Positions 7,551 to 62,953 are shown, counted from the first letter of the stretch. The stretch: 64,000 bases of DNA from Leptonemataceae bacterium (GCA_965227295.1 OZ245742.1:5376001-5440000); one strand, 5' to 3'. A program made the numbers and translations. The notes: generated by a model not told the origin, from the letters alone.

Positions 7551-7595
7551 AAAATTGTTAGCAAAATTACGATCACCGCGTCAGTGTGGACTACC

Positions 7596-7886: not shown

Positions 7887-7912
7887 GGCGGTTTCGTCAC
7901 TACGTTATCGTC

Positions 7913-24516: not shown

Positions 24517-26189
24517 GTGACACCGGTTCCACGGGCGCGCCCGCGACTCTCGGTGCCGCCTTTCTCGATCAACTCCAACAGGCCCCGCGGCATACGGCCA
24601 TCCACGATCCCGGCGGATCTATGAATCGAATCATGCTTGGTGCCGTGGCACTGGGCGTCCGCGATCTTCTGGAACGGGAAGTGTTCGCGCCGCGAGTCGG
24701 TGTGATGTTGCCGCCGGGCCGGGGCGGAGCGGTGGTGAACCTGGCGCTCGCCCTCGCCGGCCGCACGTCGGTGAACCTGAATCACACGGCCGGCGAGGCG
24801 CAATTGCGGCGGATGACGGAGATCGCCGGGCTCACGACGATCATCACGGCGCAAAAGTACCTGGATAAAATCAACATCGCTCCGGAAGACCTTCCCGGTC
24901 GCGTGCTGCTGGCGGACGTGGATCTCTTGCCGCACCTATCGAAGCTACAAACGCTCGGGCGTATGGCGCGGCTGCGTATGACCGGCGCACGCGGTCTGCA
25001 ACGCCTGGATCATGCCGCGGCAGATGCTGTGGCCACGGTTTTGTTTTCGTCGGGCACCACCGGCGATCCGAAGGGCATTCAGCTTACTCACGCTCAGATC
25101 CTGGCGAACATCCGCTCGGTGCACGCCGCCCTGGACCTGCACGACGGGCATGTCCTGCTTTCGGCCCTGCCGCTCTTTCACAGCTTCGGCCTGGTGCCGG
25201 GAATGTGGCTGCCGCTAACAACCGGGGTGACCCTGGCGGGCTTTCCAAACCCGCGCGATCCGGCCGGCTTCGGTAAACTTGCCGAACAAACATCTTCCAC
25301 GTGCATGTTAAGCACGCCCACGTTTTGCCGTCAGTATCTCAAAAAGATTCCGGCGCATCGTTTCGCGACGCTGCAGTTCGCCGTGGTGGGCGCCGAAAAA
25401 TGTCCGGCGGAACTCAAATCATCTTTCTACGAACACTTCCGCGCCCATCTTCTGGAAGGCTATGGATGCACCGAGCTTGCCCCGGTCGTGTCAACGAATC
25501 TCCTGGATTCGCATGTGCGCGGTCGCCATGCAAGCGGCGCCCGCGACGGCTCCGTGGGCCGCGCGTTGCCGAACATCGAGGTGCTGATCGTGGATCCGGA
25601 AACTCTGGAGGATGTTCCGCGCGGCGAAGAAGGGCTGATCATTGTGCGGAGCCCGGCCCGGATGCTCGGTTATCTCGGGCGGGAGGATCTGACGGCGAAA
25701 GCCTTTGTACGGGGCGGCTACAATACCGGCGACATCGGCCGTATGGATGAAGACAGCTTTCTGTTCATTACCGGCCGGCTCGCGCGTTTCGCCAAGATCG
25801 GCGGCGAAATGATCCCGCTGGATACGATCGAAGATCATATGCAATCCTGGCTGGAACGCAAGTTTGCCGCGCGCAGCACGGCTGCCGGCGACGGCGGGTT
25901 GGCTGCCGGCGATAACTCGACGGCCGACGAATCACCGGCGTGGGAAGTGGCAATTACTGCCGTACCGGATTCATCGAAAGGGGAACGCCTGATCGTGTTG
26001 CACACCGGCCTGCCGTGTTCCGAGGCGGAGGCTTTACAGGCCCTCGCCGACTTTCCACCACTCTTCCGGCCGCGGGCGCGAGACTTCTTTCGCGTGGACG
26101 AGATTCCGGTACTGGGCACGGGCAAGCGGAATCTCAAGGCCGTGAAAGAACTCGCCGTTCAAATTGCAGCGGAACCGGCGAGGAACTAG
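24513..26189 (+). CDS. AMP-binding enzyme (Aas-type acyl-ACP synthetase domain, stand-alone)
   Basis: FSSGTTGDPKG, LPLFHSFG, EGYGCTE, TGD, RFAKIGGEM, PVLGTGK. Confidence 0.9.
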   Translation: MSDTGSTGAPATLGAAFLDQLQQAPRHTAIHDPGGSMNRIMLGAVALGVRDLLEREVFAPRVGVMLPPGRGGAVVNLALALAGRTSVNLNHTAGEAQLRRMTEIAGLTTIITAQKYLDKINIAPEDLPGRVLLADVDLLPHLSKLQTLGRMARLRMTGARGLQRLDHAAADAVATVLFSSGTTGDPKGIQLTHAQILANIRSVHAALDLHDGHVLLSALPLFHSFGLVPGMWLPLTTGVTLAGFPNPRDPAGFGKLAEQTSSTCMLSTPTFCRQYLKKIPAHRFATLQFAVVGAEKCPAELKSSFYEHFRAHLLEGYGCTELAPVVSTNLLDSHVRGRHASGARDGSVGRALPNIEVLIVDPETLEDVPRGEEGLIIVRSPARMLGYLGREDLTAKAFVRGGYNTGDIGRMDEDSFLFITGRLARFAKIGGEMIPLDTIEDHMQSWLERKFAARSTAAGDGGLAAGDNSTADESPAWEVAITAVPDSSKGERLIVLHTGLPCSEAEALQALADFPPLFRPRARDFFRVDEIPVLGTGKRNLKAVKELAVQIAAEPARN

Positions 26190-26809
26190 TCGAACCCGTT
26201 GAATTTCTCCGGATATAGTATGTACTTGAGGCGAATGTTGCCGGGCAGTTGTTTTTCCGGCCGCGCTCGGAGACCAAGGTGCTTTTCGTACCGGTTCTGG
26301 TCTATGTACACGCGACTGCGGTATTCCAAATAGCCCGGGTTTGTGAAATCATAGTAGTGGAGTCCTTTTGTAGGAACTCCTACAAAAGCAGACTCATCCC
26401 CTGGATCCAGGTCTTTCTCTACCAGCCACACGAACAGGTGCGCACGCGACACCCCAACATAGCTCGCCCAAAGACCAAGCTCCATCCAGAACTCATTGTC
26501 CACCCGGACACAATAGCGGCGAAGTTCCTGACCGGGCTTCTGATAGCGAGTCTTCAGAGATCCCGACTGCATGATCTCACCTTCCAGGCACGCCCGGCGA
26601 AAATCACGCAAAAGCACGAAGAGATACACACCCTGACGACGGCGAAACGATAACAGCCGCTCTCGAAACTGCGCATCAATGCGACGCGGAATCAACAGCG
26701 TAACCGGGGTCGCGGCCGGATGAGTTCCCATCCCGCGCACAAAATCGCGTTCCGGCTCATATCGCGTCGGAGGGAAAACGACGGAGCGTTTGTGAATCAG
26801 ATGGTCCAT
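26186..26809 (-). CDS. DUF1564-like protein (Leptospira-type)
   Basis: KTRYQKPGQEL...WMELGLWA..GVSRAHLFVWLVEKD pattern. Confidence 0.75.
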   Translation of the reverse strand: MDHLIHKRSVVFPPTRYEPERDFVRGMGTHPAATPVTLLIPRRIDAQFRERLLSFRRRQGVYLFVLLRDFRRACLEGEIMQSGSLKTRYQKPGQELRRYCVRVDNEFWMELGLWASYVGVSRAHLFVWLVEKDLDPGDESAFVGVPTKGLHYYDFTNPGYLEYRSRVYIDQNRYEKHLGLRARPEKQLPGNIRLKYILYPEKFNGFD

Positions 26810-26970
26810 GTGATTTCTCCCTGGCCGCAAAGAGGCCGCAACACGTAACAGTCCAAAAACGCGAATCGTTCCGCGCTTTTTTGCACGACCCCCGGAATTT
26901 CGAAAAAAAATCGCGCGGGGCGCCGGGCGATAAGAAGATGCCCGCAACCACTAAGGCGTAAGAGTATACG

Positions 26971-29100
26971 ATGGCGAAGAAGACGGCCGCGCAGGCAAAA
27001 TCAAAGAAGAAAGCGGCATCCGCAAAAAACAAAAAAAAAGCCGGAACCGCAAATCCCCCTCGTCGAAAAACGGCCGCCGGTACGAAGCCCGGCGACCGCA
27101 CGGCCGTAGAGAAGCGCATGCGCAAGCTGGCCGACGAGATTCGCAAACATCAGTATCTCTACTACGTCAAAAACAAACCCGAAATCCCCGACCGCGACTT
27201 CGATCACATCCTGGTAGAACTGCAACAACTGGAAGCCGATCATCCCGACCTGGCCGACCCGGACTCTCCCAGTCGCATCGTCGGCTCGGACCTGGACAGT
27301 GAATTCCCGAAATTCACGCACACCATACCCGTACTGTCCCTCAGTAATACCTACTCCACCGAAGAGGCCCTGGAGTGGGCCGAAAAAATCGCCGACGCCC
27401 ACACGAGCGATATCGGCGTCCAGTGGAAGGTCGACGGCGCAAGCCTCGTCGTGTACTACGAGGACGGACGTCTGGTGCGCGCCGTTACCCGCGGCACCGG
27501 GCAGGTGGGCGACGAGGTCACGAACAACGCCCTGACCATTCGTAACATTCCGCACCAGTTGCGCGAAAAGGTCACCGTGGCCGTCCGCGGTGAGGTCTAC
27601 ATGACCTTTGCGGACTTCGAAGAGTTCAACGAGGCCCTGGGCTGGATCTACGCCAACCCGCGGAATCTCGCAGCGGGTACGCTCAAACATAAAAAGTCCA
27701 GTGAAGTTGCAAAGCGCCCGCTCCGCTGGATGCCCTTCGACGGCCATCTGCCCGCGACGGTCATGAAAAACAGAAAGATCCGCCGGGACCGCGACATCTT
27801 GAAGTATCTGGAAAAACTCGGCCTCCCCGTATCCGCCGACAACAAGTTCGTAAAGCCCTCACAACTTCGTAAAACCATCACGGAATTCGCCGCGCAGAAA
27901 GACGGCGTGCCGATGCCCGTCGACGGCCTCGTTCTGAAAGTGGATGATCTGGAAGTTCGCGAACGACTCGGCTTTACTGCAAACAACCCGCGCTGGGCCA
28001 CATCCCTGAAATTCGAACCGGAGATCGGCGAGACAGCTGTTCGGGAAATCCAGGTGCAGACCGGTCGCACCGGCCGCGTCACACCGCGGGCAAAGCTCGA
28101 TCCGTTGAAACTCGCCGGTACCACCGTAACCTACGCGACCCTGCATAACGCGGACTACGTCGAGAAACTCGGCGTGCGCATCGGCTCGCGCGTGAAAGTC
28201 AGCAAGCGCGGCGAGATCATCCCCGCGGTGGAAGAAGTCGTCGATCCCGGCGACGGTCCCGCTTACAAGTTTCCGACGAAATGCCCCACATGCTCCACGA
28301 AACTCAACCGCGATGAAGACGCCGTCGACTGGATGTGCCCGAACCCTGAATGCGACGCAAAGATGCTAAATCGCCTCATCTTCTTCGCCGGACGCAAGCA
28401 GATGGACATCGCCGGACTCGGCGAAAAGGTCGTAACGATTCTATACGAAAAGGGATTCATCCGCCGCATCCCTGACATCTATCAGTTGCACAAGCAGCGC
28501 GAACAGTTAGAAGAACTGGAAGGCTTCGGCAAAAAGTCCGTGCAGGTTCTCCTCGACGGCATCGAAGCATCGAAGCAACGCGAGTTTCGGTACGTACTGC
28601 CGGCCCTGGGGCTGCGCGAAGTGGGCACTCACGTAACGGGCATTCTGCTCACCGAGGGCTACGACTCCGTCGAGAAGATCATCAAACTCGCGAAGTCGAA
28701 AGACGGCGAGGAGATACTGAAGAACATGGACGGCATCGGCCCGCGCATCGTAGAAGCCGTCACCGAACAGTTCCGGGACAAGCAGGTCCAGCAGCTCATT
28801 AAGGATCTCAAGAAAGCCGGGTTGACCCTGGCCGCGCCCGAACGCGCGGCCGGCACCGATCTCCCACAAATATTCGAAGGCCAGTCCTGGTGCGTCACCG
28901 GCAGCTTCACGAACTTCCGCCCGCGCGATCTCGCCATGGAAGAAGTACGCAATCGCGGCGGCCGCATCGTCACCGGCGTGAGCTCGAAAACCAGTCACCT
29001 GCTCGCGGGCGAAGGCGCGGGCAGCAAACTCGAAAAAGCCGAGAAGCTCGGCGTCACCGTGGTCAGCGAGGACGAATTTCTTAAGATGCTTTCAGAGTAA
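26971..29100 (+). CDS. ligA: NAD-dependent DNA ligase
   Basis: KVDG, TRG.G..G, RGEV, ANPRN.AAG, DGLVLK, Zn finger CPTC...CPNPEC, HhH repeats, BRCT. Confidence 0.98.
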   Translation: MAKKTAAQAKSKKKAASAKNKKKAGTANPPRRKTAAGTKPGDRTAVEKRMRKLADEIRKHQYLYYVKNKPEIPDRDFDHILVELQQLEADHPDLADPDSPSRIVGSDLDSEFPKFTHTIPVLSLSNTYSTEEALEWAEKIADAHTSDIGVQWKVDGASLVVYYEDGRLVRAVTRGTGQVGDEVTNNALTIRNIPHQLREKVTVAVRGEVYMTFADFEEFNEALGWIYANPRNLAAGTLKHKKSSEVAKRPLRWMPFDGHLPATVMKNRKIRRDRDILKYLEKLGLPVSADNKFVKPSQLRKTITEFAAQKDGVPMPVDGLVLKVDDLEVRERLGFTANNPRWATSLKFEPEIGETAVREIQVQTGRTGRVTPRAKLDPLKLAGTTVTYATLHNADYVEKLGVRIGSRVKVSKRGEIIPAVEEVVDPGDGPAYKFPTKCPTCSTKLNRDEDAVDWMCPNPECDAKMLNRLIFFAGRKQMDIAGLGEKVVTILYEKGFIRRIPDIYQLHKQREQLEELEGFGKKSVQVLLDGIEASKQREFRYVLPALGLREVGTHVTGILLTEGYDSVEKIIKLAKSKDGEEILKNMDGIGPRIVEAVTEQFRDKQVQQLIKDLKKAGLTLAAPERAAGTDLPQIFEGQSWCVTGSFTNFRPRDLAMEEVRNRGGRIVTGVSSKTSHLLAGEGAGSKLEKAEKLGVTVVSEDEFLKMLSE

Positions 29101-37837: not shown

Positions 37838-38683
37838 TTAACGGAGCAACTGCAGCACGGACTGCGGACGGAGGTTCGCCTGAGCGAGCATGGCCGTTCC
37901 GGATTGAACCAGAATCTGGTTCTTCGTAAAGGCCACGGATTCCTCCGCCATGTCCGTGTCACGGATGCGGGACTCGGACGCCTGCAAGTTTTCGTAGGCG
38001 ACCATCAGCCCCTGAGCGGCGTGTTCCAGACGATTGTAATAAGCGCCGAGATCAGCGCGCTGCTTGTTCACCCGATGCAGCGCTGCGTCCAGGACACCTA
38101 TCGCGTCATTCGCGAACTCCATGGTCGAAAGGGTGAGTAAGGTACCGTCATTGCGCGTCAAGTTCAGCGCCTGGGAAGTCATCGTGCCGATGTAGACACG
38201 CTCCCGCTGGTGCTGGTTGGCGCCCATGTGGAACCACATTGAAGACACACGCGATCCGCGTGCGAAATCGCCCTGCAGAAGATTCATTTTGTTGAACTCG
38301 GCCTGCGAAGCGATACGATCGACTTCGTCGATCAGCTGCGAGACCTCGACCTGAATCATCTGCCGGTCGTTAGCGGTATAGATGCCGTTAGAAGATTGTA
38401 CGGCGAGGACCCGAATTCTCTGAAGAATATCGGTGACTTCCCCGAGATAACCTTCCGTGGTTTGAATCATGGACATACCGTCTTCGGTATTCCGTTCTGC
38501 CTGACGCAAACCGCGGATTTGTGACCGCATTTTCTCGGAAACCGCGAGACCGGAAGCGTCATCTCCCGCGCGGTTGATCCGCATACCGGAAGACAGCTTC
38601 TCCATGTTTTTATTCACGTCGACGTGCTGAAACTTCAGGACGCGGTGCGAGTTGATCGCAGAGAGGTTATGGTTAATAATCAT
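37838..38683 (-). CDS. flaB: Periplasmic flagellar filament core protein (flagellin)
   Basis: [45 protein letters not shown], 281 aa. Confidence 0.98.
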
Positions 38684-46679: not shown

Positions 46680-47348
46680 ATGCGATTCGCCGGAAAAAAA
46701 ACGGCTTTGGTCATGATTGCCTGTTGCTGCTTCGGCACCCCGGCCTCAAGCTTTGGTCAGGCCCCGGAGGCCCCCCGTGTCGAGCGGTCCATCGTCCTCG
46801 AACAATTTGAACGTGTCGACGATTCGGTGGGCCCGGGTTCCGAATCCCACGGCTGGCACGTGCGCAGCCGGCAATTGGACGGCGGTACCGCCATCGTACG
46901 CACGGATGACCTGGAGCCGCCGCCCCTGGCAGACAACGATCGCTACCTGAGCGTACGCTTTCGTGCGCCGGTCCCCGCCGGCTTTCGCATCGATGCGCGC
47001 GAGGCAGTCCGCATCCCGGGATACCTGCGGCGTCTTGAGGTATGGGTGCAGGGCCAGGGCCAGGGCGATGAATTTTATGCGGACCTCATCGATGCCGACG
47101 GCCGACACCATCGGTTGTTTGCGGCGACACTGAGCTTCGCCGGATGGCGGCGCCTGGAAATCGTTCCGCCACCCGAGTTTGCCCGCCGCTCGAGCGACGG
47201 CAGAGTCGGCGTGTTTTTTCGTGGCTTTTCCATTCGCCCTCGCCAGTCTGGCGGCGACAGCTATGCGATTCGCCTCGGCCTGGATCAGGTAACGGCAATC
47301 GTACGCGATTATGATCGCCGGCCCGCATCACCCCCATGGGAGATCTGA
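46680..47348 (+). CDS. FlaA-like (flagellar filament outer layer) domain protein
   Basis: LEQFE, IPG...LEVWV.G, L.DADG, LSFAGWRRL. Confidence 0.65.
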   Translation: MRFAGKKTALVMIACCCFGTPASSFGQAPEAPRVERSIVLEQFERVDDSVGPGSESHGWHVRSRQLDGGTAIVRTDDLEPPPLADNDRYLSVRFRAPVPAGFRIDAREAVRIPGYLRRLEVWVQGQGQGDEFYADLIDADGRHHRLFAATLSFAGWRRLEIVPPPEFARRSSDGRVGVFFRGFSIRPRQSGGDSYAIRLGLDQVTAIVRDYDRRPASPPWEI

Positions 47349-48090: not shown

Positions 48091-50226
48091 GTGGCCTTCT
48101 TCCGCACTCTGCGCGTCATGATCGGCCGGGAACTCCGCCAGGCCCCGGTAGCCTACGCCATCCTGCTGGGCTGCCTGGCGATTTCCCTGGCGGTATGGCA
48201 GGTCTGGCTGGACCTCGAAATGCGCGAAGCCCGCGGACGTTTTTCGGCACGCATTCAAATCGAGCGCGAAACGGTGCAGCTTCGCCTGCGCTCCTTTCTC
48301 GAAAACCTGCGCGCCCTGCGTAGCTTCGTAGCCGAGGCTTCCAATCTCAACGAACGGCGCTGGCGTTCCTTCATTGAGGACCTGGAGCTCTTCTCTCGTT
48401 TTACCGGCGTCGACGCCGTCTACTACGCCGTCCCCCACGAAAACAACGTAAGCATTCGCTGGCTGGACGGTGGCGTTACCCCGGCTGTCGCCCGTGCGGA
48501 ACCACTCTCCCCGAAATGTGAGGCGGCGCGTCGCAAAGCCTTCGAGCGGTCGGCGCGATTGAATCTGCCCTCCGTCTACTGTGCCGATTCCACGATGACC
48601 GATGCGGATGAGGAGCGGCGAGGTTCCGATCTGCTCGAGGCCGCGTTGCCGCACTTCAACCGTAGCGGCAACGTCCGCGGCTTCGTGGTCGTCCGCTTTC
48701 ATTTCGCAGGTTTGCTGGAGGGCCTCTTCGAAGAGCAGATCCGTCACTCGGTCACGTCCACGAACTTTGAACGGGACGGCTACGTCGAGGTCGTAAGCGT
48801 GGATCTGGGCGGGGAAATGCGAAACGTCTACTTTTCGGTACCGGCGGACTCCGCGTACGCCGTTCCGGTGGCGAGCAACGCGAATCTCTTTCTGGCGAGC
48901 GGAGTGATCATCAGCCTGCTGCTCTTCGGCGTGGTGCGTTCCCTGTCCGTGGCGCGGGAGCGCGCCGTCTCCATCGCCCGGGGGATGACCGCCGAACTTC
49001 GCGAGGCCCGGGACAACGCCGACCGCGCGAACCTGGCAAAGAGTGAGTTTCTCGCGCGCATGAGCCATGAGATTCGCACGCCACTGAACGCCATCATCGG
49101 CATGTCCGATCTCATGAGCGATACGCCGCTCACCGAGGAACAGCAGAAGTACGTGCGCACATTCCGCCACTCCGGAGAAACCCTGCTGCACATCATCAAC
49201 GACATCCTGGATCTTTCAAAGATTGAGTCGGGACGGCTGGTTCTGGAGAACCTGCCGTTTGATCCACGCGAGTCAGTGGAGGCTACCGTGGACGTCTTCC
49301 GGGCTTCCGCGGAACAGCGGGGCATCGAACTGCTGGCCGAGTTCGATGGGGAAATCCCGGCCGCGGTGAGCGGCGATCCGGTCCGGCTGAAGCAGGTCCT
49401 GTGGAACCTGACGGGCAATGCCCTGAAGTTCACGCGGGAGGGGCGCGTCATTGTGCGGCTGCGCAGGCTGCCGTCCGGAGGCGACGGCTCTGCGATCCCG
49501 GATGAGCAGGCGAATCAAACCGCCCTGCTGGACCTGGAGGTGGAGGACACCGGCATCGGCATCCCGGCGGATCGATTGCAGTCCGTATTCGAAGACTTCT
49601 CCCAGGTGGACTCGTCCATCTCCCGGCGCTTCGGCGGAACCGGCCTCGGCCTGGCGATCTGCCGGCGCCTCGCCGAACTCATGGGCGGCAGCATCACCGT
49701 GGAGAGCGAACCCGGTGTGGGCAGCCTGTTTCGTGTGCGCGCTCCCTTTGCCGTCGCGGAACATATCGCGGCCGAGGGGCCGGCCGAATCCACGCCCGCG
49801 GCCAATGCGGTCGCCACGCCGGAGGGCGGACGCCCGGGGCGCATCCTGGTCGTCGAAGATACCGAGGCAAACCGCATGCTGGTGGAGGCCTTCCTGAAAC
49901 GCCGACCGGTGCAGTTGGACTTCGCCGCTGACGGTGAGATCGGCGTCCGCCTCTTTCGGGATGTCCGCTACGATCTGGTCCTGATGGACCTGGAAATGCC
50001 CCATCTGGATGGGTACGGGGCCACACGCAAGATGCGTGAGTGGGAACAATCCCAGGGCCTGCAGCCGATTCCCATCATCGCACTGACGGCCCACGCCATG
50101 CAGGAGTACGTGGAACGCAGCCGGGAAGCCGGCTGTAGCGATTACTTAACGAAGCCTCTGCGTAAACAGACGCTCATCGAAACCTTAGAGAGTTACGGAT
50201 TGTTACCGACAGGCGGGAATGTTTAG
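48091..50226 (+). CDS. Hybrid sensor kinase (CHASE-like, HisKA, HATPase, REC)
   Basis: [43 protein letters not shown]. Confidence 0.95.
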
Positions 50227-51467
50227 TTCGACGGTGCTTTTCCGCTGTCGTCTGGCGGCTCTTCGTCCCGTTTTACAAGTTTGCCGTCTTTGAATTCACC
50301 GCGGGTCACCGAGCCGTTCGCCCGGGTGAGCACGCCGGGGCCGTTGAACTTGCCGGCCCGGAAGCGGCCCTCGTAAACCGTCCCGCTCTTGAAATGATAC
50401 TCGCCTTCGCCGTGGGGCTGGCCGTTCTTCAGTTCGCCTTTGTACTCCGTACCGTCGTCGAACTTAAGATGCCCGCGACCCTGGTACTCTCCGGCGACGA
50501 ACTCACCACTGTAGACGAACTTGCCGGGAGATTCCAGTTCGCCCTCGCCGTGAAACGAACCGTTGCGAAAGGAACCGGAGTACTTGCGACCATCGGCCCA
50601 GGTCAGTTCACCGGAACCGTGAAAGCGGCCGTTGCGAAAGGAGCCGGCGTAGACGGCGCCGTCTTTCCAGCGGTACCGGCCCTCGCCGGAAAACCGGCCG
50701 TCGTTGAAGCCACCCTCATAACGATTCCCGGAAGCGTAGCGCACCTGGCCCTGGCCGTCAGGCCGGCCGTTGCGATAGTCGCCGGTGTATTGTAGACCGC
50801 GGCGCTCAAACCGGCCGCGACCTTCGGGACGACCGTCGCGAACCGGCCCGCGATACGTTCCGCCCCGCGCGTAACGAATAACGGCCGGACCGTTCAGGCG
50901 GCCGGCCTGCCACGTGCCTTCGAAGACATCGCCGGCATTGTTGCGCGCTTTGCCGCGGCCCTCGGCTTCGCCCTCCACGAATGTTCCTTCGAAGAAAGCA
51001 CGCCCCGGAAAGTTGATGCGGCCGCGACCGTGGAACCGGCCGTTTTCCCAGTTGCCGCGATAGGTGGTGCCGTTGGCCCAACGACGTTCCCCGTTGCCGT
51101 GCATGCGTCCACTGGAGAAGCCACCTTTGTACGAGCCGCCGTCCGCCAGTTGCAGCGATCCTTTGCCGTGCATGAGGCCGTTCTGCCATCCGCCGCGGTA
51201 CTCGGTGCCGCCAGGGAAACGCATGGTGCCTTCCCCGCTCTCACAATCGCCGGCGATGCAGCCGATCTCCGGCTCCGGCTCGGTTTGCGACGATGAGGAA
51301 GATTCCGCCTGGGCAGAGAGCGGACCGCGGCCGACATGCGGCGACGCCAGGACGAGCCCCAGCCCCAGAAGAAAGATCGCAGCCCGCAAGCCGTAACCGG
51401 GAATCAAGGCCGCCGCGCTAAAAGTCGCCGAGGATTTCTTTGCGGCGTGTCTCGTATTCCTCTTCAT
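50223..51467 (-). CDS. MORN repeat protein
   Basis: GCIAGDC followed by many Y.G.F/W.NG..HG.G repeats. Confidence 0.93.
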
Positions 51468-52284
51468 TGATGAGACCTTCGTCGAAAGCACGTTTGAGTT
51501 CTCTCAGCCGCTCGGTGGGCGACGCCGGTTCGTCCTTCCTCGCATCGCCCTCGTTTTCGTCAACGACGGTAGCCGCTCCGTCTACGTCTTTCGGCTCCTC
51601 TTCTTCTTTCACCGGATGAAAACGCACGGTATCAAAGTTATCTCGTGGAATGACGGCCCAGGTGAGATGAGTATAACCGCGAATTTTTTTGAGATGATAC
51701 TGTTCTCCCGGAATGATCTCCAGGTTCGGATAGGCCTCGCGCATGTTGAGCGGGGGGACATCGGTCCAATCGTCCTCAATGAGGAACTCGTTGCGCGGTA
51801 CCTGCGTGCGAATCTCACCGAAGACTGCGTGCAGTCCCTCGTCGTCCACCCAGAGGAGGGCCGTATTGCGCTCCATGCGACTCAGCACGGAACGATCCAC
51901 GTCGTAGCGCGAGACAATGAACAGACGGTAGCCTTCTTTGAGATTGGCCGCGGCCTCCGCGATGGCCGGCGCAATCAGCCGGATCTCTTCTTCGTAGAAG
52001 ACCCGGCCGCGGGTTTCCCCCCACGCACTCATGCGGCGGTACTCCAGATTTCCGAGTAGATCCACGATGCGATCGGCGTCCCAATCCGGGAAGGACTGCA
52101 CGAGACCAAGCTCCCCCCGCACCGGTTCTTCCGGGAATTCCTGCGCGGAGATGCGATAGATGGCCACGTTCTGACGGTAGAGGACGGGCTCGCGAGTATA
52201 AAAGGCCGAACAGCCACCGAGCATTACGGTGAGGAGCGCCAGGACGATCGCCCGGCGAAAGAGCGACGGAATACGGTTCATCAT
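51418..52284 (-). CDS. Lipoprotein with C-terminal SHOCT domain (Leptospira-type)
   Basis: Lipobox [32 protein letters not shown]. Confidence 0.8.
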   Translation of the reverse strand: MMNRIPSLFRRAIVLALLTVMLGGCSAFYTREPVLYRQNVAIYRISAQEFPEEPVRGELGLVQSFPDWDADRIVDLLGNLEYRRMSAWGETRGRVFYEEEIRLIAPAIAEAAANLKEGYRLFIVSRYDVDRSVLSRMERNTALLWVDDEGLHAVFGEIRTQVPRNEFLIEDDWTDVPPLNMREAYPNLEIIPGEQYHLKKIRGYTHLTWAVIPRDNFDTVRFHPVKEEEEPKDVDGAATVVDENEGDARKDEPASPTERLRELKRAFDEGLINEEEYETRRKEILGDF

Positions 52285-52328
52285 TAGAAAATCGGTCCGC
52301 GCTGGAAGCAATCTTGAGCCCCCGCCGA

Positions 52329-55528: not shown

Positions 55529-56770
55529 TCAGATCGCGCGTTTTTTGCGCAGTTCCGTCGTTTGTTCGGGGCTGAATCCCAATTCACTTAAGATTTCATC
55601 GGTATGCTCGCCGTGCTCCGGAGGCGCCAGCGGGTAATCACACGGCGTGTCCGAAAATGCGAAGGGCGCGCCGATCTGGAGAATCTCGCCGAGACGCGGG
55701 TGTTGCATTCTGCGGACCATGCCGCGCTCATTCAGTTGGGGGTCCGCGAAAGCCTCCTCGATGCTGTTCACCGGGGCGAGGCAGGTCTCCGGATTCGCGA
55801 AGAGCTCCGACCATTCATCACGGTTGCGTTCGCGAAAGATCTGCTCCAGTTGCGGCTTGATCTTCGCGAGAGCGGCCGCCGTGAGCTCCACTCCGTCCAG
55901 GATTTCCTCGCGGCCGATCTGCCGCAAGAATCCGCGAAAGAAGCGCTCTTCGAGAGCGCCGAGCATGACGTAGCGCCCGTCCTTGCACTCGTAGACATTG
56001 TAGTTCGGCAGGCCGCCGCTCAGGTCCATCTCACCCCGGCGCGGGTTCTCACCGGACGCCATGTACTCGCCGGCGTGGAGGGAAAGAAAACTGAAGGCCC
56101 CGTCCATCATGCTGATGTCGACGAACTGGCCGCGGCCGGTTTTCTCGCGGGCGTAAAGTGCCGCGAGAATGGAAGACAGGGCGATGAGCGTGCCGCCGCC
56201 GATGTCGGCGACCTGGAAGCCCGGAAGCACCGGGGCCCCACCGGCATGGCCCGTGATGTCGAGCAGGCCGGAGTAAGCGATGTAGTTGCCGTCGTGTCCG
56301 GCCAGGCGTTCGTACGGGCCGCTCGCCCCGTACCCGGAGATGGCGCAGTAGATGAGGCGCGGATACTTTTCTTTGAGCTGCGGGTAACCGATGCCCATGG
56401 CTTCCAGCGTGCCCGGCCGAAATCCTTCGAGGAGGATGTCCGCGTCCTCCAGGAGTTTGTGCAACACCTCGCGTCCCTCCGGGCGTTTGATGTTGATGGT
56501 CATAGCGCGCTTGTTGCGGTTCACCATGAGATACAGGCCGCTCTCGTTGTCGTCGTTGCGCTCGCCGGCATTCTTTTGCCCGTCCTTGCCGAGGCGCGCG
56601 CCCATGAGCCGCGTCATGTCCGGCATGCGTGGGTTTTCGATTTTGATGACGTCGGCGCCCATGTCGCCCAGGTGCATGGAACACAGCGGGCCGGGCAATA
56701 GCAGCGAAAGATCGACGACGCGCACGCCGGCCAGCGGGCCGCTGCGCGAGGGGGTTCCGGTATGCGACAT
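55529..56770 (-). CDS. CaiB/BaiF family III CoA-transferase
   Basis: [33 protein letters not shown]. Confidence 0.95.
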
Positions 56771-56916
56771 AACGAATGGCCAGCCTGGCACGGCGGCGCG
56801 CGGTACGTCAAGCCAGTGGGCGCAGGGAAAATGCTTTGATCTCAAAAAACCGTGGAGAACTACGACGATTGGAACTGGAAGTCGGCGCTGGTTTTCGACT
56901 CTTGCGTTAGCGATCT

Positions 56917-58464
56917 TTATTTCGCCGCGCGCTTCTTCGCATTGCGCTTACGAACCACTTTCCCGATCATACTTTGCGGCATCATCTTGCGCAGCGACGG
57001 GTCCTCGAACTTACTGCGCAGGAGCCAGTCTTTCTTAACGTACTTGCGTTGAAACTCTTCGGCGATGGCGATGATTTGATCGAGGTCGCTGGAAATGCGA
57101 ACGTCCTGTTGCAGCGGCTCCTTGCGATGAGCGGAGTAATCGGTGTAACTGAATACATAGGCGGGGTAGTCCGGATCGACTTCGTCTTTGTTCGTCTGCC
57201 ACACCACGAACTTACGCACGGCCTGTCGACCGCGGCTGTACACGAGGCGCAGTAGAATCTGTGACGGCGGATACTCAATGCGCGGGACGGTCGGCTGAAA
57301 ACCGTCGATGAACACAAGGTCCGTGATCTGGGTGATGCGGACGTCCGGATAAACGGCGGACTTATCCTCGCGCATCCGAATGAACGTATTGCGCTGCATG
57401 CTGACGAACGGCACGTTTCGCACGACGCGGTAGGTTTTGTAGGTTTCGTGCTCGTACTCCAGCAACATGCGCAGATACGGCCGGCCGCCGCTGCGTTTCG
57501 TGAGAATGTCATCGCTGTTGAACTCAATGACGATGCGCGGCTCCACCATGTGATAGGCCGACTGCTGCGAATCCACGTGCACGTACCCGGAATTGATCTC
57601 CAGCTTTCGTAGCCGGTCGTAAAGTTCGCGGCGTTCGTCGTCACTGAATCCGTCGGAGACGCGCGTTAGAATCTGGAACGTGCCGTCTTCGCGCATGAGC
57701 GCGGTGAGTACCGAAGCGACGCGGCCCTGCCCCCGCGCGTCCGTGAACGCTTTGTAACCGACGATCACCGCATCCACACGATGCTCCGCCTTGAACTTGT
57801 AGCGGAACGGCAGATCGCTGCGAATCATTACGCCTTCGGCGCCGAATTCGCGGACCTGGCGCTCGTAGTACTGTAAGATGTCGCCGCGATCTTCGCTGAC
57901 GATCGTTTCCACGGGCGGCACCGGAGTTCCGGCAAAGAGAGTCTGCAGGCGTTCGTAAACCTGATCGTAGTCGTCGAAGTACTCGCCGTCCAGTTCAATG
58001 ATATCGAACGGAGCAAACCAGAGTTGCTCCAGATCTTTCGCGGTCTCCGGCCGGGACGTCAGTCGAATCACGTCGAAGATGCGCGTACGGTTGCCGTCCT
58101 CGCGCAGGACGATGAGTTCGCCCGGGATCAGGGCCGTGCGCACGCCGGCACGTTTCAAGATTTCCGCGGCCGTGTCGATGACAGGCAGGCCAATGTAAAC
58201 CGCGCCGCTCGGTCGAATCAAACAAGCGTTGCCGCGCTCGTAATACAATATGCTGTGCTCGCCGTCCATCTTGCGCGAGACGTAGAAGCGCGAGCCCGGC
58301 AGCCGGGGGACATCGCCCGCGTTGATCGAAGTGAATCGTGCGGCGACCTTTTCTTTATAGTCGCGCACCATGCGCAGCAGGTTCGGCTCAATGCTCTCCC
58401 GCGGGAGAATGTGAAAGTCTCCCAGGATGCGTCGCGCGATGGATGGATCGAGGTGAATCCTCAC
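56917..58464 (-). CDS. ATP-dependent DNA ligase-like protein with extra C-terminal domain
   Basis: Motif I RKMDG, III GEL, IIIa FDII, IV EGVMIR, V KFK, OB domain (DAVIVGY, V.DGFSDDER, EPRIVIEF), VI FIRMREDK. Confidence 0.85.
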   Translation of the reverse strand: MRIHLDPSIARRILGDFHILPRESIEPNLLRMVRDYKEKVAARFTSINAGDVPRLPGSRFYVSRKMDGEHSILYYERGNACLIRPSGAVYIGLPVIDTAAEILKRAGVRTALIPGELIVLREDGNRTRIFDVIRLTSRPETAKDLEQLWFAPFDIIELDGEYFDDYDQVYERLQTLFAGTPVPPVETIVSEDRGDILQYYERQVREFGAEGVMIRSDLPFRYKFKAEHRVDAVIVGYKAFTDARGQGRVASVLTALMREDGTFQILTRVSDGFSDDERRELYDRLRKLEINSGYVHVDSQQSAYHMVEPRIVIEFNSDDILTKRSGGRPYLRMLLEYEHETYKTYRVVRNVPFVSMQRNTFIRMREDKSAVYPDVRITQITDLVFIDGFQPTVPRIEYPPSQILLRLVYSRGRQAVRKFVVWQTNKDEVDPDYPAYVFSYTDYSAHRKEPLQQDVRISSDLDQIIAIAEEFQRKYVKKDWLLRSKFEDPSLRKMMPQSMIGKVVRKRNAKKRAAK

Positions 58465-59162
58465 GTTAGATCTTTCAACTCCAGGTTCGAAAGATGCAGC
58501 GCGAGGCGATAGGCGCGCCCGCGAACGCGTCCTTCAAGGAACGCACGGTACGGCAGGCCGCCGCGACTGAGCACCAGCGGCTCGTCTCCGCCGGGACCGC
58601 CGCCCAGAACCATGAAGGCGTTGCGTTGCTGAAGGTCCCGGGCCATGCCGTAGAGAAAGTCGTAGGTCAGGCCGTTGACGTGGCTTAACTGATACACACG
58701 AGAACTTACGAACATCGTGACGGCCTGGTCTTTCGAAAGATAACGTCCCGTCCACAGCACGGGGATTTCCGCGGAGATGTTGGCTTCGAGGGGCAGCCAC
58801 TCCCGGCGGCCCTGCTCGTTGCCGTCCGGGCCGTACTCGACTTCCTGCCAGCGGACCTGGTAAGCGATGTCCCCACCGGACTTGAGAAAGATGCGCCGGG
58901 TGTTCCGTACGATGCGGCCCGTGATCTCGAAATCGATCTCCGGGTCCTCGCGAATCAGAGCTTCGGCGACGTGTTCGGGACCGCCGGCTTCCGCGACGAT
59001 GCGTTCGTAACCGGTGGTCGCCGTGCTCTTCACGTAACGTACGGCTTGCGCCTGGTTTCCGGAGGCGTCCTGAAACGACGGGGCTTCCGCCTCAACCGGG
59101 GCGCGCTCCAGACCGACCAGTGCGTCACGGCGCTGATGATCGCTAAGATTGATTGATCGCAT
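58461..59162 (-). CDS. Hypothetical protein, putative diverged Ku-core-like
   Basis: Coupled to the ligase (GTGA overlap); VRYVK, YQL....TYDFLY.MARDL pattern resembles the Ku core. The ORF is secure; the fold is inferred. Confidence 0.55.
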   Translation of the reverse strand: MRSINLSDHQRRDALVGLERAPVEAEAPSFQDASGNQAQAVRYVKSTATTGYERIVAEAGGPEHVAEALIREDPEIDFEITGRIVRNTRRIFLKSGGDIAYQVRWQEVEYGPDGNEQGRREWLPLEANISAEIPVLWTGRYLSKDQAVTMFVSSRVYQLSHVNGLTYDFLYGMARDLQQRNAFMVLGGGPGGDEPLVLSRGGLPYRAFLEGRVRGRAYRLALHLSNLELKDLT

Positions 59163-59163
59163 A

Positions 59164-59802
59164 TTAAGAATCGTCTCCGGTTCCGCGCGAATGTCTTCCG
59201 GAACGTTGCATGGAAAAATCGAGGTCTTGCTCGCCCGGATCTTCGAATTCGTCGATGCGGCCGGTGTCCGCCCGTTCGAGGAAGTCCAGTTGTACGCGTC
59301 GACCGGTGACGAGAAAGAGTCGGCCCCGCGCGGGAATCAAGAATCCGGTCTCCGGCGAATGTCCCCCGCGGTACGAGAAGGGAAAACCGTAGAGTTCCTC
59401 ATGATCGCCGAGGGCCTCTGTTAATTCCGGAAGCGCCTCGCCGCGCAGAACATACACGGACGAAATCTCGTGATCATAATACTCATCGAGACCGAAGCGT
59501 TCCTGCAACACGATGGGTGCGTGAAACGCAGACGGCACTTCCGGTAACGGCCGGCCTGCGGCATCGACGGCGCTGAGCTCCGTGGGAGACAGCCACTGTC
59601 CGGCCTCGTTCAGATAACCGCTGCCCGTAGAACGAATCACGGTGGAGCCGTGATCATCGACGGCGGCCGGCTGTAGTTCACTACCGTAGTTGTCGACGGG
59701 CAGCCGTTCGCTGCGACCATAGAGCCGCGGCCGATCGATCTTCGCCGGCTGCAACGCAAACTCGCGGCCGTCGTGCAACTGGAATGTGAGAGTGCGGGGC
59801 AT
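59164..59802 (-). CDS. Hypothetical protein, putative diverged Ku-core-like
   Basis: GYLNEAGQWL..TEL, I...E....E......VYVL, LTEAL, FSYRG patterns resemble the Ku core; 1-nt gap to the next gene; alternative start at 59841. Confidence 0.6.
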   Translation of the reverse strand: MPRTLTFQLHDGREFALQPAKIDRPRLYGRSERLPVDNYGSELQPAAVDDHGSTVIRSTGSGYLNEAGQWLSPTELSAVDAAGRPLPEVPSAFHAPIVLQERFGLDEYYDHEISSVYVLRGEALPELTEALGDHEELYGFPFSYRGGHSPETGFLIPARGRLFLVTGRRVQLDFLERADTGRIDEFEDPGEQDLDFSMQRSGRHSRGTGDDS

Positions 59803-59988
59803 CGCAGGGGAACTCTCGCGCAAGAACGCGATTTCTTCCATTAATAAACTACAAAAATGATCGGCACGGCGACCGTCCCGGGCAAGCCTGGAAGCGTGGG
59901 TCTCTCGATTTTTCTCGGCGACCGCATTACCGAGGGCCGGCTGCGTCCCGCGGATCGCGGGACGTTACCGAAGCGAATCTGCGCACAC

Positions 59989-60999
59989 TTACGGAACGAA
60001 TCGGCCGAGGACGCGCCGTAAGAATTCCTCGCCGCGTCCGTGACGAATGCGCAGCTCCATTTCGAGGACGTGCAACCGGGAGCGCCAGTCCGGGTTCTCG
60101 TCGCGGCGCAAAAGATCGTCGATACGCACGAAGTCCTTCGCCGTCGTAATCCAGGGCAGCTCCGGCGGATCGGCAAAGAGCCGGTCCAGGTCTCGCCGCG
60201 CATAGAAATGATGATCGGGAAAACTGCGGCGCTCTGTTAATATGATTCCATATGTACTTAAAGAATTAAAAAAGGCCTCCGGATTGCCGATGCCGCAGAA
60301 GGCTCCGGCCGGAGTCCCGGCGGTGAGCGGCGGTTCAATGGAACGCGGGGCGTGTTCGGCCTCGTAGATTGTTGCATGGGCATGCGCAGCCAGGGCTTCG
60401 TGCCAGGCCTTCAGCAACTCATCGCCGGCCAGGTTCGCCCTCGTCAGTAAGATCGTATCCGCGCGAGTTAAGGCATCGAGGCGTTCCCTGAAGCGGCCCG
60501 CGGGAAAGACCCGCACGCGCTCCGGCGGCACCGTAGCGTCGATCAACACGAGTTCGTGATCGCGATACACCAGGGGATTCTGAAAGGCGTCGTCCAGTAA
60601 AACGCAGTCCGCCGAAGTACCAAAACGTTCGATCAACACGGCCCGCTTCGGACCGGCCGCCACACGCAGCCCCGGCGAACGTGCGAGTAACAACGCTTCG
60701 TCTCCGGCCGTGCGGACATCCGCAAACAGCCGCTCGCCGTCGGAGACCAGGACACCCTCCGGATTCTTTGACGCCGTGGCCCCGTAACCGCGCAGAGCAG
60801 CCAGGGTCGGAATGCCCAGGCGTTCCAGTTCGGCGGCCAACAGTAACGTCGCCGGAGTCTTGCCGGTGCCGCCGGCGGAGATGTTACCGACGGAGACGAC
60901 GTACTTGTGTTCGTAACGCCGCTGATCCCGGAGACGACGGGCGTAGGTACGCCGGTGCAAGAACAGATAGAGTTCCTCAAGCAGGCGCAGAGGATTCAT
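59989..60999 (-). CDS. lpxK: Tetraacyldisaccharide 4'-kinase
   Basis: SVGNI.AGGTGKTP, RGYG, GDE, LDDAFQ, PAGRFRE, FPDHH, TTAKD. Confidence 0.95.
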   Translation of the reverse strand: MNPLRLLEELYLFLHRRTYARRLRDQRRYEHKYVVSVGNISAGGTGKTPATLLLAAELERLGIPTLAALRGYGATASKNPEGVLVSDGERLFADVRTAGDEALLLARSPGLRVAAGPKRAVLIERFGTSADCVLLDDAFQNPLVYRDHELVLIDATVPPERVRVFPAGRFRERLDALTRADTILLTRANLAGDELLKAWHEALAAHAHATIYEAEHAPRSIEPPLTAGTPAGAFCGIGNPEAFFNSLSTYGIILTERRSFPDHHFYARRDLDRLFADPPELPWITTAKDFVRIDDLLRRDENPDWRSRLHVLEMELRIRHGRGEEFLRRVLGRFVP

Positions 61000-61000
61000 C

Positions 61001-62953
61001 TCAGCCTTCCGGGCGGCCGTCGGCGAACTGCATCTCGTAGAGCTTGCGGTAAATTTTACCGTTATCAAGCAATTCTTGATGCGTGCCGCGTTCCACGATG
61101 CGGCCCTGGTCGAGGACGAGGATCTGATCCGAGCGATAGATCGTCGAAAGGCGGTGCGCGATGATGAAGACCGTGCGCCCCTGGAGCAGGCGTTCCACGG
61201 CCTGCTGGACCAACAGCTCGCTCTCGTTGTCCAGGTTCGAGGTGGCCTCGTCGAAAATCAAAACGGGAGGATCCAACAAGAGTGCCCGCGCGATGGCGAG
61301 ACGCTGGCGCTGACCGCCGCTCAACATCACACCACGTTCTCCGATGGGAGTATCGTAGCCTTCGGGAAGTTTTTCGATGAATTCGTGGGCGTTCGCCGCG
61401 CGGGATACTTCCTCGACACGTTCGTTGGAAACATCCGGCCGCGCGTAAGCGATGTTCTCGCGCACGGTGGCGTTGAACATGAACACGTCCTGGCTGACGA
61501 TGCCCACGGCCTTGCGCAAATCGGTGAGTTCGATTTCCCGAATATCGACGCCGTCGATGCTGATGCTGCCGGCGTTTACATCATAGAGACGCGGCAGGAG
61601 GTCCACCAGGGTACTCTTGCCGGCACCGGACGAACCGACAAGGGCGACGCTCCGCCCGCGTTCCACGGAAAAGCTGATGCCTTCGAGAGCCGGGCGCTCG
61701 CTGCCGGGGTATCCAAACGTAACATTATCGTAAGTTACGGACTTACGCACGTCTTTCAGCGGCTTCGGGTTCGGCGCGTTCTCCACGCCCGCCGGCAGGT
61801 CCATCATCTCGAAGATCCGCAGCGCCGCCGCATGGGTCGCGCTGAGCAGGTTGATCATGATCGAAACATGTTTGATAGGCCGCATCACAAACAGCAGCGT
61901 CAGAAAAAAACCGAAGAACTCGCCGCGGTTCAGCGGATTCTCCCGACCGATGGCCATGGTGATTTCGTAAGCGCCCCAGACCAGGAAAGCCGCCACCACG
62001 GCCGTGCCCGTGAACTCGGTGAGCGCCGGACCCACCTGGTGAAAGTAATGTCCCTTAAACGTATGGCTGTAGAGGCGTTCGTTGATTTCGCCGAAGCGAC
62101 GGCGTTCGAAACCTTCCATGGAAAACGCGCGAATCACGCGGATGCCGCCGATGACTTCCTGAATGTGCCCGCTCAGATCGGCCAGCTTCTCCTGTTGTCC
62201 CGTGTAAGCCCGGCGAATGCGCGTGGCGAAGTTGCTCACCGGCACAACGACGATGGGCACGATGAACACCGAGATGAACAGCATCTGCGGTGAAATGTAT
62301 GCGAGCAGGCCCAGGTGCGTAAGGATGTAGAAGATGTTGATCAGCGCCTCGTTGAATTCAACGGAGATGGACTTCGCCACCACCTCGACATCGTTGACGA
62401 TGCGCGACATGACGATGCCCGTGCGTTCTTTCTGAAAGTAATCGATGCCGAGCCGGTTGAGCTGGCGATAGAGGCGCATGCGAATGTCCCGCACGGCGTA
62501 TAAACCGGCGGTGCCGACGAAATAGACCGTGCCGGTGATGCAGACGATCTTCAATAGATAGACAGGAAAAATCGCCAGGCACAACCAGATGATGGCCTCG
62601 CCCGCCGTACTTCCTTCCACCTGGCGATTCAACCAGACTTTTGCGGCGGTGAACTGAGCGCGTAAGACCTCGGTGGATTGGTCCTGCCGGCCCTCGAGAT
62701 AGATCTCGTACTGCTTTTGTTCGTCGTCGCCGATCTCAAAGAGAACCACGGTGCCCTCTTTGCCCATGAGATTGAATATGGGAATGAACGCCGTGAGGGA
62801 AACCAGGTTCGTCAGGGAAACGACGAGCGCCAGCACGAGACCGGCGACGATGCGCAGACGATAATGAAATACGTAAGCGAAGAGCCGGCCGAGGACCCGC
62901 AGCCGGCCCGGATCGTTCTGATCGGCGTCTTTCTTAACATCTTTCTGTGACAT
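61001..62953 (-). CDS. msbA: MsbA-type lipid A ABC exporter
   Basis: TMD plus NBD (GSSGAGKS, LSGGQRQR, DEATS, IAHR); directly upstream of lpxK. Confidence 0.88.
   Translation of the reverse strand: MSQKDVKKDADQNDPGRLRVLGRLFAYVFHYRLRIVAGLVLALVVSLTNLVSLTAFIPIFNLMGKEGTVVLFEIGDDEQKQYEIYLEGRQDQSTEVLRAQFTAAKVWLNRQVEGSTAGEAIIWLCLAIFPVYLLKIVCITGTVYFVGTAGLYAVRDIRMRLYRQLNRLGIDYFQKERTGIVMSRIVNDVEVVAKSISVEFNEALINIFYILTHLGLLAYISPQMLFISVFIVPIVVVPVSNFATRIRRAYTGQQEKLADLSGHIQEVIGGIRVIRAFSMEGFERRRFGEINERLYSHTFKGHYFHQVGPALTEFTGTAVVAAFLVWGAYEITMAIGRENPLNRGEFFGFFLTLLFVMRPIKHVSIMINLLSATHAAALRIFEMMDLPAGVENAPNPKPLKDVRKSVTYDNVTFGYPGSERPALEGISFSVERGRSVALVGSSGAGKSTLVDLLPRLYDVNAGSISIDGVDIREIELTDLRKAVGIVSQDVFMFNATVRENIAYARPDVSNERVEEVSRAANAHEFIEKLPEGYDTPIGERGVMLSGGQRQRLAIARALLLDPPVLIFDEATSNLDNESELLVQQAVERLLQGRTVFIIAHRLSTIYRSDQILVLDQGRIVERGTHQELLDNGKIYRKLYEMQFADGRPEG

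Follow-up and report, generated by a model that had tools for sequence, protein, structure and literature searches.

What is encoded by a run of three adjacent genes, two for hypothetical proteins and one for an ATP-dependent DNA ligase, in the genome of a bacterium assigned to the Leptonemataceae? The genes occupy positions 56917 to 59802 of a 64,000-nucleotide stretch of DNA (GCA_965227295.1, OZ245742.1:5376001-5440000); the entire stretch is called here the window, and positions are counted from its first letter. A preliminary interpretation made from the DNA without database searches (hereafter, the sequence-only reading) considered the genes to be a candidate for an undescribed end-joining system that comprises two different Ku-like proteins and a stand-alone ligase. 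The analysis presented here suggests that this cassette is probably a new end-joining system consisting of Ku-like proteins, which are not recognizable as such at the sequence level, and a ligase. We hold with fair confidence that the three gene products constitute a self-contained module for DNA end joining or break sealing, in which a Ku-like ring would act together with its own ligase.

All three genes, like the other features of the cassette described below, are on the minus strand. Gene A (59164..59802, including the stop codon) encodes an acidic protein of 212 amino acids (aa) with a predicted Ku-like core; gene B (58461..59162) encodes a 233-aa protein, also with a predicted Ku-like core, which is the best conserved of the three; and gene C (56917..58464) encodes the ligase, a 515-aa protein with a GTG start. 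Direct inspection of the sequence confirmed the co-orientation and the tight junctions of the genes: at the A/B junction, TAAtATG (59160..59166), a single base separates the stop codon of A from the ATG of B, and at the B/ligase junction, GTGA (58461..58464), the start codon of the ligase gene, GTG, shares two bases with the TGA that terminates B. A longer open reading frame (ORF) is possible for gene A (59164..59841, 225 aa, with an ATG at 59841), but the ATG at 59802, which the sequence-only reading had given, was retained because it is supported by the alignments of homologues. The A-B-ligase arrangement is not a chance pattern of ORFs because the identical gene order recurs in other phyla.

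Predicted folds of proteins A and B

At the sequence level, A and B produced no matches to Pfam or NCBIfam models at E ≤ 1 and were not assigned to any PADLOC or PHROG family. The indications of their identity come from template-free AlphaFold2 models compared to the Protein Data Bank (PDB) using Foldseek. For the B model (predicted local distance difference test, pLDDT, 73.1; predicted template modeling score, pTM, 0.64), all listed matches were to Ku or to Ku-containing complexes of non-homologous end joining (NHEJ), with 233-257 aligned columns and Foldseek probabilities of 0.87-1.00. The top matches were apo Ku of M. tuberculosis (9ig8, E = 2.1e-5) and a bacterial Ku homodimer (8v53, 2.7e-5), and further ones included 9i91, chains of Ku80 in the structures 6erf and 1jey, and Ku of B. 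subtilis (9vnq). For the A model (pLDDT 65.1, pTM 0.57, with pLDDT below 50 at residues 25-46 and 52-61 and in the tail, residues 172-212), all listed matches were to Ku or Ku-containing entries as well, 23 of these at E ≤ 1e-3, with 7sgl_C (1.2e-4), B. subtilis Ku 9vnq_A (2.1e-4) and M. tuberculosis Ku 9i91 (2.9e-4) at the top. In a second structure library, the viral BFVD, B had a single significant match, to Ku from Mycobacterium phage Dylan (9.3e-4).

A Ku-core fold (a beta-barrel with a bridge) is the best-supported reading of both models. In the models, both proteins show the core elements only; at 212 and 233 aa, they lack the von Willebrand factor A (vWA) domain (no Pfam vWA match) and the C-terminal arm of Ku70 and Ku80, and neither protein of the window ends in the combination of minimal C-terminal region and basic extension that is reported for bacterial Ku in excerpts of PMC4889933. 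Accordingly classified by fold, A and B are Ku-like proteins that lie outside the curated Ku family. In these respects, the models agree with the sequence-only reading, which had anticipated Ku-like folds for both hypothetical proteins, the absence of a C-terminal helical arm, and a pair of proteins very unlike each other (the hhalign probability for the A profile against the B profile is 0.12%). Because of this low value, common ancestry of A and B is not demonstrable from sequence. The further claim that the proteins have no basic tail is valid for A and B of the window but not for the system, in which such a tail is attached to the ligase here and to B in some relatives.

Both proteins belong to large families. 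For B, 1245 of the 2029 candidate proteins were identified as relatives at E ≤ 1e-3, with 42-53% identity across phyla and 82% identity to one nearer relative; wherever a source names one of these proteins, the name is "hypothetical protein." For A, a word-based search yielded 8 relatives, and a profile built from 48 sequences retrieved 923 cluster representatives at E ≤ 1e-3; with the threshold set at E ≤ 1e-10, there were 604. Gene A evolves faster than gene B (mean pairwise identity of 38% and 48%, respectively). Two variants were noticed in the A family (P0173 and P0273), one with an N-terminal zinc-ribbon extension (CxxC...CxxC) and the other with a large insertion in the middle of the fold; the latter may be a chimera. 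The B family is mildly basic (median isoelectric point, pI, 9.0). The B protein of the window ends 5 residues past the last strand of the model, and 7 relatives carry lysine-rich C-terminal extensions of 79-153 aa (pI 9.5-10.6).

The C-terminal half of B (residues 158-228) is unusually conserved for a structural ring protein, with Q158, H161, D168, R206, R212, H223 and E228 invariant across phyla. These polar residues may belong either to an interface with a partner or to an active site; under the more speculative version of the scheme outlined at the end, they might form an end-processing active site that replaces the PE and POL domains of the LigD-type ligases.

The ligase

Gene C encodes a member of the ATP-dependent DNA ligase superfamily, with motifs I, III, IIIa, IV, V and VI and an OB-fold. 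In an alignment of 33 family ligases, the nucleotidyltransferase residues K65, D67 and G68 (KMDG), E116 (GEL), E210 and G211 (EGVMIR), K223 and K225 (KFK), and R365, D367 and K368 (FIRMREDK) are invariant, and F153 and D154 (FDII) are nearly so. By homology, K65 in motif I (58261..58272) is the adenylated lysine. The OB-fold domain (residues 246-368; 57361..57729) matches Pfam DNA_ligase_A_C (PF04679, 1.3e-9) and ends with motif VI. The PHROG family "ATP-dependent DNA ligase" also matches C (6.7e-12).

No POL or PE domain was detected in C with Pfam or NCBIfam, and no PrimPol or PE gene is conserved nearby. The curated models of NHEJ ligases score far below their cut-offs (NCBIfam NHEJ_ligase_lig, 66.9 bits against 227.75; NCBIfam LigD, 49.8 against 373.2; the LigC model PRK08224, 24.2 against 296), so that C qualifies neither as LigD nor as LigC. 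The best matches of the C profile in the PDB were to archaeal and Lig1-type ligases (3rr5, 3.6e-23; human LIG1, ~1e-20), compared with 5.5e-6 for the LigD ligase domain (1vs0). The PDB matches span profile positions ~48-378. The catalytic core is thus Lig1-like but without the large N-terminal DNA-binding domain; a short, conserved N-terminal region (residues 1-47; 58324..58464) takes the place of that domain.

Compared to the core-only LigC, C contains 47 additional residues at the N-terminus and ~145 at the C-terminus. The C-terminal addition includes a conserved domain of ~95 aa (residues 392-488; 57001..57291; 60% mean column identity over the 33 sequences) and a basic tail of 35 aa (residues 481-515; 56920..57024; pI 11.9, 34% lysine plus arginine). 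The domain has no sequence match in the PDB; a weak WGR (PF05406) signal in 1 of the 33 members (E = 0.017) and an Atlas WGR cluster at rank 12 (score 0.78) provide a weak lead to a WGR-like nature, which was not adopted as an identification. Basic tails of at least 20 aa are present in 7 of the 33 ligases, including that of the window, and in one relative, the tail is annotated as PF07382, histone H1-like. Thus, of the ligase anatomy outlined in the sequence-only reading, the full set of nucleotidyltransferase motifs, the OB-fold and the lack of POL and PE domains stand; the protein is not a bare core, the C-terminal domain and the basic tail having been overlooked in that reading.

Conservation of the cassette across bacterial phyla

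A pattern scan of one genome per species detected at least 599 stretches, at least 544 of which encode a relative of B, and the best 80 loci were kept. These represent at least 12 phyla: Planctomycetota (32 loci), Bacteroidota (16), Bacillota (9), Actinomycetota and Spirochaetota (4 each), Acidobacteriota and Verrucomicrobiota/Lentisphaerota (3 each), Desulfobacterota, Myxococcota, Chloroflexota and Pseudomonadota (2 each), and Gemmatimonadota (1). Among the 75 loci with enough flanking sequence, A is located directly upstream of B in 69; the ligase gene, the usual companion of Ku, directly follows B in 63 and is found within the locus in 66 (the 3 additional ligases are further along or N-terminally extended). 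The strict A-B-ligase triad was identified in 57 of 71 loci; its carriers include the cultured non-pathogens Pseudobacteroides cellulosolvens (L069) and Acetivibrio alkalicellulosi (L018). The co-occurrence of the homologues with the ligase, to which the sequence-only reading had tied its proposal, thus holds for most of the loci. In the relatives, the A-B spacing is mostly 3-14 nt, and the most common B-ligase spacing is -4 (13 of 51 loci), followed by -1 (6 of 51). All-against-all clustering of 3185 ORFs revealed no fourth conserved gene; the other large clusters were antisense shadows of A, B and C.

The matrices of pairwise identity are strongly correlated between A and B (r = 0.91, 48 rows) and between C and either of the two (r = 0.92, 31 rows), with a maximum of 0.13 in 500 label shuffles. 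By this comparison of sequences, the three genes are inherited as a unit. A tree was constructed from concatenated A and B sequences (48 rows, after exclusion of loci in which one of the genes is absent, of those with truncated matches, and of L006, L028, L067 and L068). In this tree, Planctomycetota are confined to one side of a branch, as are Actinomycetota, Bacteroidota are scattered over at least three positions, and the window sequence groups with one from Acidobacteriota (Shimodaira-Hasegawa-like approximate likelihood ratio test support of 98), not with the other spirochaetes. Because of these placements, some horizontal transfer of the cassette is apparent.

Several loci depart from the common pattern. 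In the Gemmatimonadota locus L006, A (127-735) is 6.2 kb upstream of B and the ligase (7001-9211). In three loci, B was found without A or the ligase in the fetched DNA (L020, 7001-7711; L021, 7001-7711; L054, 305-1021), which extended for at most ~7 kb on each side and, in L054, for only 304 nt upstream of B. The neighbors of the lone B genes are metabolic (for example, genes for a GHMP kinase, a methyltransferase and a protein with DUF1569), and ordinary metabolic genes surround the exceptional loci in general. The partners of a lone B may be encoded elsewhere in the genome, or else B may act alone.

Evidence against a Ku-like ring and possible alternative roles of A and B

A number of observations weigh against the interpretation of A and B as a Ku-like ring that works with the adjacent ligase. 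The Pfam Ku model (PF02735) matches none of the 48 members of the A family and none of the 48 members of the B family at E ≤ 10; a search of PDB sequences produced no match to A or B with single sequences and no Ku with profiles; and the named clusters of the Atlas yielded nothing usable for B. In the structural comparisons, the TM-scores of the A and B models to Ku are 0.31-0.41, with root mean square deviations of 9-16 Å, and the assignment rests on models of moderate confidence (pLDDT of 73 and 65 for B and A, respectively, with A falling below 50 across residues 25-61). The strongly acidic character of A (family median net charge of -22) is unusual for one half of a DNA-encircling ring. 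Furthermore, the partnership of A, B and the ligase is not absolute because the fetched flank contains no ligase in 9 of the 75 loci, and 5 of the 75 (L016, L020, L021, L023 and L041) lack A altogether within the locus, with both missing from L020, L021 and L023. The correlated evolution of the three genes reflects co-inheritance, not binding. Finally, the cassette encodes no end-processing enzyme, and no damage-response regulatory signal was found.

The first of these points, that is, the lack of any sequence-level signal tying A or B to Ku, and the high deviations with TM-scores below 0.5, are what one would expect if the resemblance to Ku were an artefact of moderate-confidence models and A and B were unrelated beta-rich proteins with some other role beside the ligase. 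We consider this highly improbable given that two unrelated sequences, modeled separately and without templates, both yielded lists consisting of Ku only, with Foldseek probabilities reaching 1.00 over nearly the full length, that BFVD agrees with the PDB, and that the conserved partner is a DNA ligase, as is the case for Ku.

The acidity of A raises a different alternative, namely, that a homodimer of B alone forms the ring and A has an acidic regulatory or adaptor function: it might mimic DNA and so gate B or the ligase, or else recruit other host proteins via its C-terminal peptide. The median pI of the A family is 4.2, and the median net charge is -12 even without the tail; B is the better conserved of the two proteins and, as noted above, can occur without A. 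The tail itself (residues ~172-212; 59167..59289) is predicted to be disordered, with pLDDT below 50, and the last 35 residues of A have a family median pI of 4.05. It contains the motif D-L-D-F-S-M (residues 193-198; 59209..59226), in which L194, D195, F196 and S197 are invariant in the homologue alignment, with F196 invariant in all 48 sequences. In 44 of the 48 family members, the C-terminus has the form DF-x-(M)-x; the motif is the very C-terminus in most relatives, and A of the window extends for 14 residues beyond it. This DF-x-M-x ending may resemble the acidic C-terminal tip of SSB. Nevertheless, a B homodimer with an accessory A seems unlikely: the matches listed for the A model, taken by itself, are likewise all to Ku or Ku-containing entries, A adjoins B with tight spacing in the great majority of the loci, and the canonical Ku core is itself acidic, with a pI of 5.5 according to excerpts of PMC4889933.

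Relationship to known end-joining systems

No description of the cassette family was found in a full-text literature search or in four family libraries (Pfam, NCBIfam, PADLOC and PHROG), in line with its having been called undescribed. In its proposed action, the cassette is comparable to bacterial Ku-LigD and Ku-LigC. With the Ku-LigD pair (M. tuberculosis; YkoV/YkoU of B. subtilis), it shares a protein of ~230 aa with a Ku-core fold (a predicted one in the cassette) whose gene adjoins that of an ATP-dependent ligase containing the OB domain PF04679, as well as basic, lysine-rich tails within the system and a chromosomal location with a patchy distribution. Unlike Ku-LigD, the cassette includes two dissimilar Ku-like genes instead of one, both missed by the Pfam and NCBIfam Ku models; its ligase lacks POL and PE, has a core closer to the archaeal and Lig1-type enzymes, and contains an extra C-terminal domain. 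The arrangement of charges differs as well. In canonical bacterial Ku, as described in excerpts of PMC4889933, the core is acidic, a basic extension (pI 11.4) governs threading and bridging, and a short "minimal" C-terminal region is required for LigD binding. In the cassette, it is the ligase that bears the basic tail (B does so in some relatives), and an acidic tail is present on one of the subunits. The basic module floats between B and the ligase, which would fit a role in DNA binding analogous to that of the Ku extension.

The combination of Ku with LigC is similar in that the ligase lacks polymerase and phosphoesterase domains and is thought to work with Ku. LigC, however, is a bare nucleotidyltransferase-OB core associated with PrimPolC and base-excision repair enzymes (as stated in portions of the review PMC7470946), whereas the cassette ligase has N- and C-terminal additions, no PrimPol neighbor, and scores far below the NCBIfam cut-offs. 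This comparison brings up the alternative that the cassette seals nicks or gaps, not double-strand breaks, with the Ku-like ring serving as a clamp or lesion sensor, by analogy with LigC in stationary-phase base-excision repair. The absence of POL and PE from the ligase is compatible with such a role, as is the indication, in the same portions of PMC7470946, that core-only LigC mainly serves base-excision repair, and genes for repair proteins are occasionally found next to the cassette (UvrD in L022, a MutS-like protein in L076 and MazG in L003). Each of these neighbors, though, was found in one locus only, the cassette has no conserved neighbor encoding a glycosylase, an AP endonuclease or PrimPol, and all the structural matches are to a ring that binds DNA ends. 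Overall, nick or gap sealing has a low probability, and end joining remains the preferred function.

Similarly to the eukaryotic Ku70/Ku80-ligase IV system, the cassette combines two diverged, paralogue-like subunits of predicted Ku fold, encoded together, with a dedicated ligase of the Lig1/Lig4 type, and Ku80 chains are among the best structural matches. The differences are that the cassette lacks the vWA domain, the C-terminal arm, SAP, XRCC4/XLF and DNA-PKcs, that the subunits are only ~210-230 aa long, and that the heterodimer is, in this case, inferred. Phage Ku-like proteins, such as mycobacteriophage Ku and Mu Gam, are also small end binders with a Ku fold, and mycobacteriophage Ku is the only significant viral match of B. 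These phage proteins are generally encoded by single genes and borrow the host ligase, and neither B nor the ligase of the cassette was found in the phage records searched. The cassette ligase also resembles the unstudied bacterial ligases with a WGR domain, which are reported from delta-proteobacteria and Planctomycetia in portions of PMC7470946, in having a small appended domain, which in the cassette gives weak leads to WGR; the OB domains differ, being PF04679 in the cassette and the OB-2 type, PF14743, in the WGR-bearing ligases.

Genomic context and mobility

The position of the cassette between lpxK and a CoA-transferase gene was confirmed by Pfam matches on both sides (LpxK, 59989..61068, 6.2e-64; CoA_transf_3, a family III CoA-transferase, 55529..56845, 1.1e-116), and the housekeeping NAD-dependent LigA is, as had been stated, encoded separately in the window (26971..29100, plus strand). 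The G+C fraction of the three genes, 0.57-0.64, is the same as that of the flanks. The intergenic region between lpxK and gene A (59803..59988) contains a perfect 9-nt inverted repeat at 59944-59964, between the lpxK stop codon and the start of A, with the arms CGTCCCGCG and CGCGGGACG separated by 3 nt; this repeat could be an operator or the stem of an lpxK terminator without a T-run. In this intergenic region, no promoter-like sites were found, and terminator-like sites were not more common than in shuffled sequences.

The sequence-only reading had also raised the possibility of a connection with mobile elements or phages, which was not borne out by the collections and flanks examined. B matched nothing among 50,697 records of phages and 72,556 plasmids, the ligase matched nothing in the phage records and A nothing in the plasmids, and none of the three proteins matched a PADLOC defence model at E ≤ 1. 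Of the flanking proteins that were scanned (83 of 125 ORFs from 24 loci), most have housekeeping or metabolic functions; one is integrase-like, and another is of plasmid type. A mobile or defence origin as the general explanation of the cassette was accordingly rejected.

As a minor alternative, pertinent to one sub-clade of Bacteroidales, a role in mobile-element, anti-phage or anti-restriction functions, for example, recircularization or protection of linear DNA, as opposed to chromosome repair, was retained. The patchy distribution over at least 12 phyla, the multiple positions of Bacteroidota in the tree and the grouping of the window with Acidobacteriota are compatible with this possibility, and mycobacterial NHEJ contributes to anti-phage defence according to excerpts of PMC12848934. 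In the Bacteroidales/Muribaculaceae sub-clade, the ligase gene is directly followed by a gene for a Strawberry-notch-like helicase of ~1200 aa, with AAA_34 and Helicase_C_4 domains (L014, 9102-12698; L051, 9088-12696; L071, 9103-12705); an integrase-like gene is located upstream in L051 and a SIR2 gene in L014. Against these stand the lack of PADLOC matches, the absence from the phage and plasmid collections that were tried, the mostly housekeeping flanks, and a G+C content equal to that of the flanks, all of which make such a role very unlikely; a module for DNA end joining is favored.

Other additions to the cassette are confined to sub-clades. The ligases of the helicase-bearing Bacteroidales/Muribaculaceae sub-clade lack the first ~27 residues. 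In three Clostridia loci (L013, 9154-12436; L064, 9201-12554; L069, 9176-12505), the ligase is followed by proteins of ~475 aa and ~620 aa; in L013 only, the former contains a SWIM zinc finger and the latter HEAT repeats, and those of L064 and L069 have no Pfam match at 1e-6.

Elsewhere in the window, genes for a DUF1564 protein (26186-26947), a flagellin (37838-38683) and a FlaA-like filament sheath protein (46680-47348) suggest a spirochaete (Leptospirales-like) chromosome, yet one with a G+C content of ~60%; DUF1564 is presumably linked to Leptospira. An Amidoligase_2 gene (3.5e-59) adjoins a Peptidase_C26/class-I glutamine amidotransferase gene at 14468-16467 on the minus strand, and the segment at 50223-52311 encodes two proteins, one of 422 aa with MORN repeats and, after it, one of 297 aa with a terminal SHOCT domain. 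The longest ORF of lpxK shares 68 nt (61001-61068) with that of the MsbA-like ABC transporter (ABC_membrane and ABC_tran) upstream, and the true start of lpxK is probably further downstream than the first TTG.

A putative end-joining pathway and its implications

The gene arrangement, the ligase motifs, the predicted folds and the conservation across phyla are observations, from which ring formation, subunit stoichiometry, end binding, ligase recruitment and the roles of the tails are inferred in the following scheme. A and B most likely assemble into a Ku-like ring, probably as a 1:1 heterodimer. This ring would load onto double-stranded DNA ends, hold them, and recruit the co-translated ATP-dependent ligase. 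As the ligase lacks the DNA-binding domain, its basic C-terminal domain and lysine-rich tail would supply the affinity for DNA and the bridging, and the conserved acidic tail of A, with its DF-x-M-x-COOH ending, is a candidate peptide for docking of the ligase or of another partner. The system has neither a POL nor a PE domain, and therefore, sealing would be limited to directly ligatable ends unless others are first trimmed by enzymes of the host. A more specific version of this scheme, which we advance tentatively and rate as somewhat short of likely, holds that A and B are a third, sequence-unrecognizable branch of the Ku superfamily that forms an obligate heterodimeric ring, the prokaryotic counterpart of Ku70/Ku80, with its own Lig1-like ligase.

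A survey of bacterial NHEJ, as far as excerpts of PMC7719229 indicate, identifies Ku and LigD by sequence models, and because such models are used, surveys of this kind would miss the cassette; genomes that carry only this cassette would be scored as lacking Ku. Should A and B indeed be equivalent to Ku in function, the known range of end joining would widen by at least 544 species from at least 12 phyla, gut anaerobes and Planctomycetota among them. Under the more specific version of the scheme, a pathway would be provided for lineages that are usually scored as NHEJ-less, for instance, Treponema, gut Bacteroidales, cellulolytic Clostridia and many Planctomycetota. With functional equivalence to Ku, the cassette would also be a compact three-gene end-joining kit suitable for testing in laboratory strains, and a function would be assigned to two large families of "hypothetical proteins," with 1245 (B) and 923 (A) cluster representatives. 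If the two proteins indeed form the ring together, bacteria would possess a two-subunit Ku, with a bearing on the origin of the eukaryotic heterodimer.

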